NCBI RefSeq assembly: GCF_017348835.2
Contig: NZ_CP071375.1
DNA: 64,000 bases
Source: Escherichia coli
Lineage (GTDB): Bacteria > Pseudomonadota > Gammaproteobacteria > Enterobacterales > Enterobacteriaceae
Strand: one strand, 5' to 3'
Of the stretch, positions 12,001-15,000 are shown piece by piece. Each line of letters begins with the position of its first letter. Position 1 is the first letter of the stretch. The position numbers were made by a program.

Positions 12001-15000
12001 TATTTTATTTATGCGATGCGATGATTAGGCATATTTCATCGCTAATCCGCCGCCAAGCGCAGTAACACCACCTAATACACCGGTAGCAATACCTAAACCT
12101 AAGAATTCTTGGGAGCTTGCATTTGTTGTGCATGCCATTGCGATACCAGTACCTAAAGTAGCCAGAGCTGTAGTAGCGAGTGCAATTCCGGCTACAATTC
12201 TGATATTACGACTTACCCCATTTTCTGGTGTCATTACTCCTGTATTTTCATCCACCAAAACATTTCCATTGATTGTGGCTGCCAGTGGTAATACTCCGCC
12301 AGAAGGACTTAAATTGGCTGCATCCATTAACTTTTCTCCATTGTCTAATTTAGACATTTGTCTGGTTATCAATAACTAAATTATCCCATGGGCAACTATT
12401 ATATTATTTAAATAGTTGCAATGTACATAAAGTACATATACTGTATATATTATCCAATACGCTTTTTCAAGCAATAATATCCACACATATACTTACTTCA
12501 GAGCCTGCATATGAATCTTTTAATTAAAAGAAACGTAGAAGAGTTTTTAAGATTATTAGGAAATGATTTTTATTTGTTTGATAATCGCGTGGAAATTGAT
12601 TTTAATGGTTTTTCTTTTTTTATTGAAATAATTGATAGTAATGTGTTTATTACGTTTGCCTTAGAGTATAACGAAAATGCGTTTTTTTCTTTTTTCAATG
12701 CCCTTGCCCCTGAACGGACGCAGGGAGTGATTGAACATATTTTTGTCTACGATAACAAATTGTGCTTAAGTTGTTTGTTAACCAATATTGATGTGTTTTC
12801 TCTAATGAATACTTTTCAGCAGCATGTGCAGATTATTGAACGAGTTCGCAGGATGACATCATGAATAAACTCTTAAATATATTTAAAAAAGCAGAGTCAT
12901 ATCACGATCTTATTCTGGCTCTCTTCTTCTTTATGGCTGTAATGATGATGATTATTCCATTGCCAACAGTTGTGGTGGATATCATTATCGCGATTAATAT
13001 ATCGACAGCGTTGCTTTTATTAATGCTCTCAATCTATATAAAAAATCCTCTTGAGCTAACTTCTTTTCCTACAATCCTGTTGATTACGACGTTGATGCGC
13101 CTGTCGCTCAGTGTTAGTACAACCAGACTTATTCTGCTGCATCACGATGCGGGTGACATTATTTACTCCTTCGGTAACTTTGTTGTTGGCGGTAATATTG
13201 TTGTTGGCCTGGTTATTTTTACCATTATCACCATTGTACAATTTATGGTTATTACAAAAGGGGCTGAGCGTGTTGCTGAAGTGAGTGCTCGTTTTTCCCT
13301 TGATGGTATGCCAGGAAAACAAATGAGTATTGATGGTGATATGCGCGCAGGCGTTATTGATCCGCTTGAGGCAAAAGTTCTTCGCTCCCGAGTGCAAAAG
13401 GAAAGCCAGTTTTATGGTTCAATGGACGGGGCGATGAAGTTTGTAAAAGGGGACGCTATTGCCGGTATCATCATTGTTTTAGTTAACCTGTTTGGTGGCG
13501 TGCTCATTGGAATGTGGCAATTTGACATGCCATTTAGTGAAGCACTTAGCCTGTTTTCTGTATTGTCTGTCGGTGATGCTTTGGTTGCCCAGATCCCTGC
13601 GCTTATTATTTCCGTCACTGCGGGGGTTGTTGTTACTCGTGTTCCCGGTGAAAGCGAAAAAGAAGAAAACCTTGCAGGTGATATTGTTCAACAGGTTTCT
13701 GTTAATAGTCGCCCTTTTTTAATCAGTGCCGCACTCATGATCGTAATGGCGATTATTCCTGGCTTTCCTACATTGGTCTTCTTGTTTCTGGCGGTTTGCC
13801 TGTTGGGTATCGCCTGGAAATTACAAAAGAAAAGAACGTTTGGAACCGGAAATAATAAGGACGCTATGGGAGCTGATTTGTCTAATAGTCAAAATATCTC
13901 ACCGGGTGCCGAGCCGTTGATTTTAAACTTAAGTAGTAATATTTATAGCTCAGATATTACACAGCAGATTGAGGTTATGCGTTGGAATTTCTTTGAGGAA
14001 AGTGGAATTCCATTGCCTAAGATTATTGTTAATCCAGTTAAAAATAATGATAGCGCTATAGAATTTTTGCTCTATCAAGAGTCAATATACAAAGATACTC
14101 TTACAGATGATACTGTTTATTTTGAGGCTGGGCATGCAGAGATATCATTTGAATTTGTCCAGGAAAAGCTTTCGGCTAACTCTATCGTGTATAAAACGAA
14201 TGAGGCTAACCAACAACTAGCTCACGTCTCAGGTATGGATGTTTATGCAAAAACAAATGACAAGATAACGTTTTTGCTAAAGAAACTTGTATTGTCTAAT
14301 GCCAAAGAGTTCATCGGCGTACAAGAAACGCGTTATCTGATGGACATCATGGAGAGGAAATATAACGAACTTGTGAAAGAGCTTCAGCGTCAGCTTGGTC
14401 TGAGCAAGATTGTGGATATTCTTCAGCGTCTCGTAGAGGAAAATATCTCAATTAGAGATCTACGAACTATTTTTGAAACGCTTATTTTTTGGTCCACAAA
14501 AGAAAAAGATGTGGTTATCTTGTGCGAATACGTTCGTATCGCCCTCCGTCGGCATATTTTAGGTCGCTATAGCGTTCGCGGTACACTTCTGAATGTCTGG
14601 CTTATTGGCTCTGATATTGAAAATGAGTTACGAGAGTCGATCAGACAAACGTCATCAGGTTCGTATTTGAATATCTCACCGGAGCGAAGTGAGCAGATTA
14701 TTGGCTTCTTAAAAAATATTGTGAATCCAACGGGGAATGGCGTCATTCTGACCGCTTTAGATATCAGGCGCTATGTGAAGAAAATGATTGAAGGTTCGTT
14801 CCCGTCAGTCCCCGTGCTCTCTTTTCAGGAAGTTGGGAATAATATCGAACTTAAAGTATTAGGAACGGTAAATGATTTTAGAGCATGATTCTGTATTGGA
14901 AAGATACCCACGTATCCAGAAAGTGCTCAATAGCACTGTGCCGACATTATCATTAAATTCGTCTACCAGATATGAAGGCAAGATTACCAATATCGGCGGG

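Follow-up and report, generated by a model that had tools for sequence, protein, structure and literature searches.

The closest described system to the element analysed here is the SOS box of the divergent LEE2 and LEE3 promoters in the enterocyte effacement locus (LEE), reportedly described in 2007 by Mellies, Haack and Galligan (J Bacteriol 189:2863), with binding said to have been seen as DNase I protection. Later papers relay this system. According to a passage in PMC6338047, induction of LEE2 and LEE3 by mitomycin C depends on recA and lexA, and LexA, in an in vitro binding result relayed there, binds an SOS box located between the LEE2 and LEE3 promoters, which overlap; a passage in PMC3355084 gives LEE2/3, and not LEE1, as LexA-repressed in enteropathogenic E. 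coli (EPEC), and the link between the SOS response and the type III secretion system is cited in PMC2994835 as well. We analysed the corresponding region in a 64,000-nt stretch of an Escherichia coli genome (contig NZ_CP071375.1 of assembly GCF_017348835.2; hereafter the window). A LexA-like site at 12439–12458, identified by elimination, almost certainly corresponds to the SOS box that Mellies et al. (2007) described, known to us through the citing papers, and it probably acts as a weak, non-canonical LexA operator on LEE2 and LEE3.

The site lies inside the 183-bp gap between espZ and cesL of the E. coli LEE island, where the LEE2 and LEE3 promoters diverge, and has the following parts:

12439–12458, 20-mer in the natural LexA register: the LexA-like motif TACTGTATATATTATCCAAT.
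12439–12459, no strand assigned: LexA-like operator, the 21-mer with the displaced right half; left half TACTGTATATAT with its CTG at 12441–12443, a surplus spacer T at 12450 or 12451, and right half ATCCAATA at 12452–12459, which carries CAA and not CAG.
12443, no strand assigned: the third base of the CTG triplet, which is polymorphic (G in the window).

The first-pass annotation had given the motif as 12440–12459. A motif is indeed present there, and the string it quoted, tactgtatatattatcc, occupies 12439–12455 and begins one base further to the left. Its description of a CTGT half followed by a TA-rich spacer and no clean ACAG partner is borne out by the sequence, and its placement of the motif between espZ and orf12 (cesL), in the divergent promoter region, agrees with both the open reading frame (ORF) list and the RefSeq annotation.

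We scored 20-mers by the heterology index (HI; defined in PMC2994835) with a matrix built from 19 classical K-12 LexA sites, all of them checked as exact strings at the expected MG1655 promoters. The site at 12439–12458 is taken to be the published SOS box because no other 20-mer in the espZ–cesL gap is LexA-like, none of the rest having an HI below 19 (next best 19.0), and because it is identical in E2348/69. The same 20-mer is present in a genome derived from E2348/69, in E2348/69 itself (as part of an exact 43-mer match), in O157:H7 and in E. albertii. Its location, the citing papers, the identical E2348/69 20-mer and the lack of a competitor in the gap all favour the earlier suggestion that this is a candidate for the reported SOS control of LEE2 and LEE3. 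A full-text literature search for the motif string returned no match, and looking for published maps of the promoters yielded nothing of use. We also considered a second, adjacent LexA box for cooperative binding, as at ydjM, and rejected it, every other 20-mer in the gap having an HI of at least 19.

Positions 1–12 of the site are identical to the consensus and incur no HI penalty, and the consensus flank is followed by a TA-rich spacer; by an analytic estimate, a perfect left 12-mer of this kind is expected by chance 0.0066 times per window and 0.0013 times per 138 bp. The right-hand bases TATCCAATA (12451–12459) agree at 8 of 9 positions with those of the uvrB right half, TATCCAGTA, and lie one base too distant. 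When one spacer base is skipped the site becomes TACTGTATATATATCCAATA, which matches the consensus at 18 of 20 positions with an HI of 3.9–4.1, in a register picked post hoc and by a move that the index does not allow. This gapped score has no equal in the window, where no other 21-mer falls below 7.7, and it was reached in none of 100 simulated 64-kb windows (P ~0.0002 for the 138-bp gap). Since the gapped score and the perfect left 12-mer both lie far beyond chance, the resemblance to a LexA operator is real, and its geometry, CTG-N11-CAA, is outside the family definition.

The LEE2/LEE3 region was found in 696 of 5426 complete E. coli genomes, always as one copy and always on the chromosome. 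The exact 43-mer spanning the site (12420–12462) is carried by 486 of the 696, and 134 carry the same 43-mer with G12443A, which converts CTG to CTA; these include the O26:H11 strain 11368, and the alleles were also seen in alignments. Sequenced examples from the remaining 76 have T12458C or A12459G, once together with the A allele, and an Escherichia sp. locus has A12456C; none of the variants seen repairs the spacer or the CAA. The CTA allele looks derived, because every other lineage, and E. albertii too, has G. The 138-bp stretch 12373–12510 is 95–99% identical in 655 of the 696 genomes. Over a 901-bp query that also contains espZ, for which the window is 100% identical to pig strain PE164, identity is only 80–90% in 461 of them. 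The regulatory gap is far better conserved than espZ, which fits a fast-evolving EspZ beside a constrained promoter, and hardly any position varies over some 100 bp surrounding the site, whether in E. coli lineages, in E. albertii or in an Escherichia sp. No ancestral canonical box in a more distant LEE came to light: a contig scan for CesL matched only E. albertii and the Escherichia sp., and a protein search and cluster listing gave only Escherichia, with no Citrobacter rodentium, one protein proving to be of that same Escherichia sp. type.

Several results weigh against a working operator at this site. In the canonical register its HI comes to 14.95 (plus strand) or 16.65 (minus strand), above the 12.6 quoted as the limit for LexA binding (PMC3374874), which agrees with the earlier description of the match as only partial; real K-12 sites have an HI of 0.7–9.7 in training and up to 12.9 when left out one at a time. 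The log-odds score is 3.2 bits, as against at least 13.7 bits for the K-12 training sites. The entire penalty of 14.95 comes from positions 13–20, and the A allele at 12443 raises it to 18.62 and lowers the score from 3.2 to −3.3 bits. The site ranks 46th in the window in this register, with about 27 such sites expected from a 64-kb first-order Markov simulation, and an equal or better canonical match is found in 138 bp of the same composition with P = 0.27. In the canonical register, therefore, the site matches no better than chance and falls outside the criteria of the LexA family. In place of the palindromic core CTG-N10-CAG it has CTG-N10-CCA, or CTG-N11-CAA in the shifted register. We know of no accepted LexA geometry with a spacing of 11 bp. 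The carriers of CTA include established strains of enterohaemorrhagic E. coli (EHEC), among them the fully virulent O26:H11, and contact with LexA is therefore dispensable; with the whole ~100-bp promoter core nearly invariant, the box is not set apart by its conservation. The identity of the site with the footprinted bases was reached by elimination. In EHEC exposed to D-serine, the SOS regulon is strongly induced while the LEE is repressed (PMC4366372), and SOS control is therefore not dominant. The first-pass annotation had proposed matrix scoring as a check and had expected a false lead to show both a poor score and no binding in vitro; the score in the canonical register is poor, and the expectation about binding does not hold, in vitro binding being reported in the literature.

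How the site sits relative to the neighbouring genes and promoters is given below. The identities of espZ, cesL and escV are supported by the RefSeq annotation of identical and near-identical genomes; the promoter elements come from consensus and hexamer-pair scans and are candidates.

12025–12327, minus strand: espZ (sepZ), first gene of LEE2, ATG at 12327 (ORF list, RefSeq annotation under the match, end of the coding sequence mapped from relative L002).
12511–12864, plus strand: cesL (orf12, mpc), first gene of LEE3, ATG at 12511 (ORF list, RefSeq, Pfam SsaM-family match on homologues).
12861–14888: escV, downstream of cesL.
12416–12421, plus strand: −35-like TTGCAA in the LEE3 direction (hexamer-pair scan), invariant in all aligned LEE lineages.
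12437–12442, plus strand: candidate LEE3 −10 hexamer TATACT, with a 15-bp spacer to TTGCAA.
12422–12427 and 12446–12451, plus strand: alternative LEE3 pair TGTACA and TATATT, 18 bp apart (consensus scan).
12465–12470, minus strand: −35-like TTGAAA in the LEE2 direction (hexamer-pair scan), invariant in all aligned LEE lineages.
12442–12447, minus strand: candidate LEE2 −10 hexamer TATACA, 17 bp from TTGAAA (hexamer-pair scan and sequence).

The candidate hexamers TATACT and TATACA share base 12442, within the palindrome ATATAC-T-GTATAT (12436–12448), and the LexA-like site spans every plausible predicted −10 hexamer of both divergent promoters. This predicted overlap is consistent with the wording 'overlapping promoters' in the passage of PMC6338047.

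If the site acts as a weak operator, one LexA monomer would sit on the perfect half-site TACTGTATAT and the second would face the degraded right half, one base too far away and with CAA in the place of CAG. Occupancy would be low, because the second half-site is both degraded and displaced, and high levels of LexA would be needed to fill a site of such presumably low affinity. Judging from the geometry, a LexA dimer on 12439–12459 would occlude both promoters, and it would block RNA polymerase at LEE2 and LEE3 together because its 21 bp cover the overlapping predicted −10 hexamers. Upon DNA damage, RecA-stimulated self-cleavage of LexA would then relieve a modest repression that would be subordinate to the dominant control by Ler and H-NS.

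The motif can also be read as the core of two overlapping divergent sigma-70 promoters, the palindrome supplying TATACT and, on the opposite strand, TATACA, in AT-rich DNA controlled by Ler and H-NS; the likeness to a LexA box would then be incidental, and any effect of LexA in vivo marginal or indirect. The −10-like hexamers of both strands fall exactly on the motif, the canonical score is at chance level, and it is the entire promoter core, not the box alone, that is invariant. The substitution of CTG by CTA, tolerated in 134 genomes, turns TATACA into TATATA, which fits the −10 consensus equally well, and SOS induction and LEE expression can run in opposite ways. However, even in sequence of this composition chance falls far short of accounting for a perfect 12-mer and an 18/20 match with one gap, and passages in the citing papers report direct LexA binding and recA- and lexA-dependent induction. 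Operators normally overlap promoter elements, so that a promoter core at this position is compatible with an operator. We regard an incidental resemblance as a real if somewhat unlikely possibility.

A further alternative places the CTGT motif within a binding site for PhoB (a Pho box), the repeat unit of which starts with CTGT. Two Pho boxes are predicted in the LEE2 promoter region of O157:H7, where PhoB(CA) gives a gel shift on a LEE2 probe from −228 to +81 (PMC3978041). The best matches to CTGTCATAWAWCTGTCAY in the gap reach only 10–11 of 18 positions, however, with 10 of 18 over the motif itself, and the sole match in the window with three or fewer mismatches is at 36182, away from the gap. 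This reading of the motif is unlikely, and very much so in our estimation. A weak LexA operator is what we continue to favour.

Several repeats were seen around the predicted promoters. A perfect 9-bp inverted repeat, GCAACTATT and AATAGTTGC with a 10-bp loop, occupies 12392–12419 just upstream of the box and overlaps TTGCAA; strain 14EC007 and E. albertii NBRC 107761 have a 5-bp deletion that takes away part of its left arm. The chicken-meat isolate TB354 (L008) has an 18-bp tandem duplication, AATAGTTGCAATGTACAT, aligned to window positions 12411–12428, which doubles the −35-like TTGCAA and TGTACA. The 9-mer ACATATACT is found twice, 51 bp apart, at 12434–12442 and 12485–12493, and its second copy gives a −10-like TATACT that is 18 bp from TTTTCA, with the cesL ATG only about 18 bp further on; judged by its sequence, this copy could be a second, proximal LEE3 promoter.

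Elsewhere in the window, the core CTG-N10-CAG is found 22 times, as against 10.8 ± 3.7 in shuffles, nearly always in GC-rich sequence and in the second half. This excess probably comes from CTG and CAG being common codons and not from LexA sites; an AT-rich CTG-N10-CAG is found nowhere in the 64 kb. The second-lowest HI in the window (9.8) belongs to TCCTGTATTTTCATCCACCA at 12238–12257, within the espZ coding sequence, with CAC for CAG. The lowest (8.1; 15.5 bits) belongs to TACTGTATACCATTACATTA at 20233–20252, in the map–tir gap and LEE5 promoter region, ending 62 bp upstream of the tir ATG (20314); it falls within the range of K-12 sites and is wrong only at G18 (CTG-N10-CAT). Of the 584 genomes that match the 56-mer around it (20215–20270), 232 do so at 99% identity or more. 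We rejected it as a real SOS box on the grounds that it is lineage-specific: O157:H7 has a 1-bp deletion in the spacer together with an A-to-G change, and E2348/69 does not have the motif.

In EPEC and EHEC infection, antibiotics that induce the SOS response raise clinical concern because they induce Shiga-toxin phages, and a LexA operator on LEE2 and LEE3 would also link DNA damage to the assembly of the secretion apparatus. Both the site and the way it is read are already known (published 2007), and there is no new biology here. What the present analysis adds is that the site does not score as a LexA box in the canonical register, that apart from one surplus spacer base it is nearly a perfect box, and that a CTG-to-CTA allele is common in nature. 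This natural allele destroys the good half of the site and is a ready-made in vivo test of whether the operator matters. More speculatively, this could be an SOS operator that has decayed or been deliberately detuned, with the extra spacer base and the change from CAG to CAA leaving type III secretion weakly coupled to the SOS response and the CTA allele severing that coupling altogether; we consider this doubtful. Were it true, LEE lineages would differ in whether DNA-damaging antibiotics raise LEE2 and LEE3 expression, CTA being carried by about a fifth of the LEE-positive complete genomes.

Compared with canonical SOS boxes of the form TACTG(TA)5CAGTA, such as that of uvrB (AACTGTTTTTTTATCCAGTA), the LEE site shares the perfect left half, the TA-rich spacer and, as predicted from the scans, a position over promoter elements. 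Unlike them, it has CTG-N11 in place of CTG-N10 and CAA in place of CAG, and in the canonical register it is wrong at the invariant A17 and G18. A partial precedent for a LexA-like box with a degenerate right half is the upstream box of ydjM, CACTGTATAAAAATCCTATA, which is present in MG1655 and, like the LEE site, joins a good left half to a right half without CAG (ATCCTATA, where the LEE site has ATCCAATA); LexA is said to bind the ydjM box (Fernandez de Henestrosa et al., 2000). The degenerate ydjM box keeps the N10 spacing (CTG-N10-CTA) and abuts a canonical box, TACTGTACGTATCGACAGTT, whereas the LEE site stands alone. The likeness is closest to the LEE2/LEE3 SOS box of EPEC E2348/69: although the window comes from another LEE lineage, the locus, the gene context and the 20-mer are the same, with no difference in sequence.
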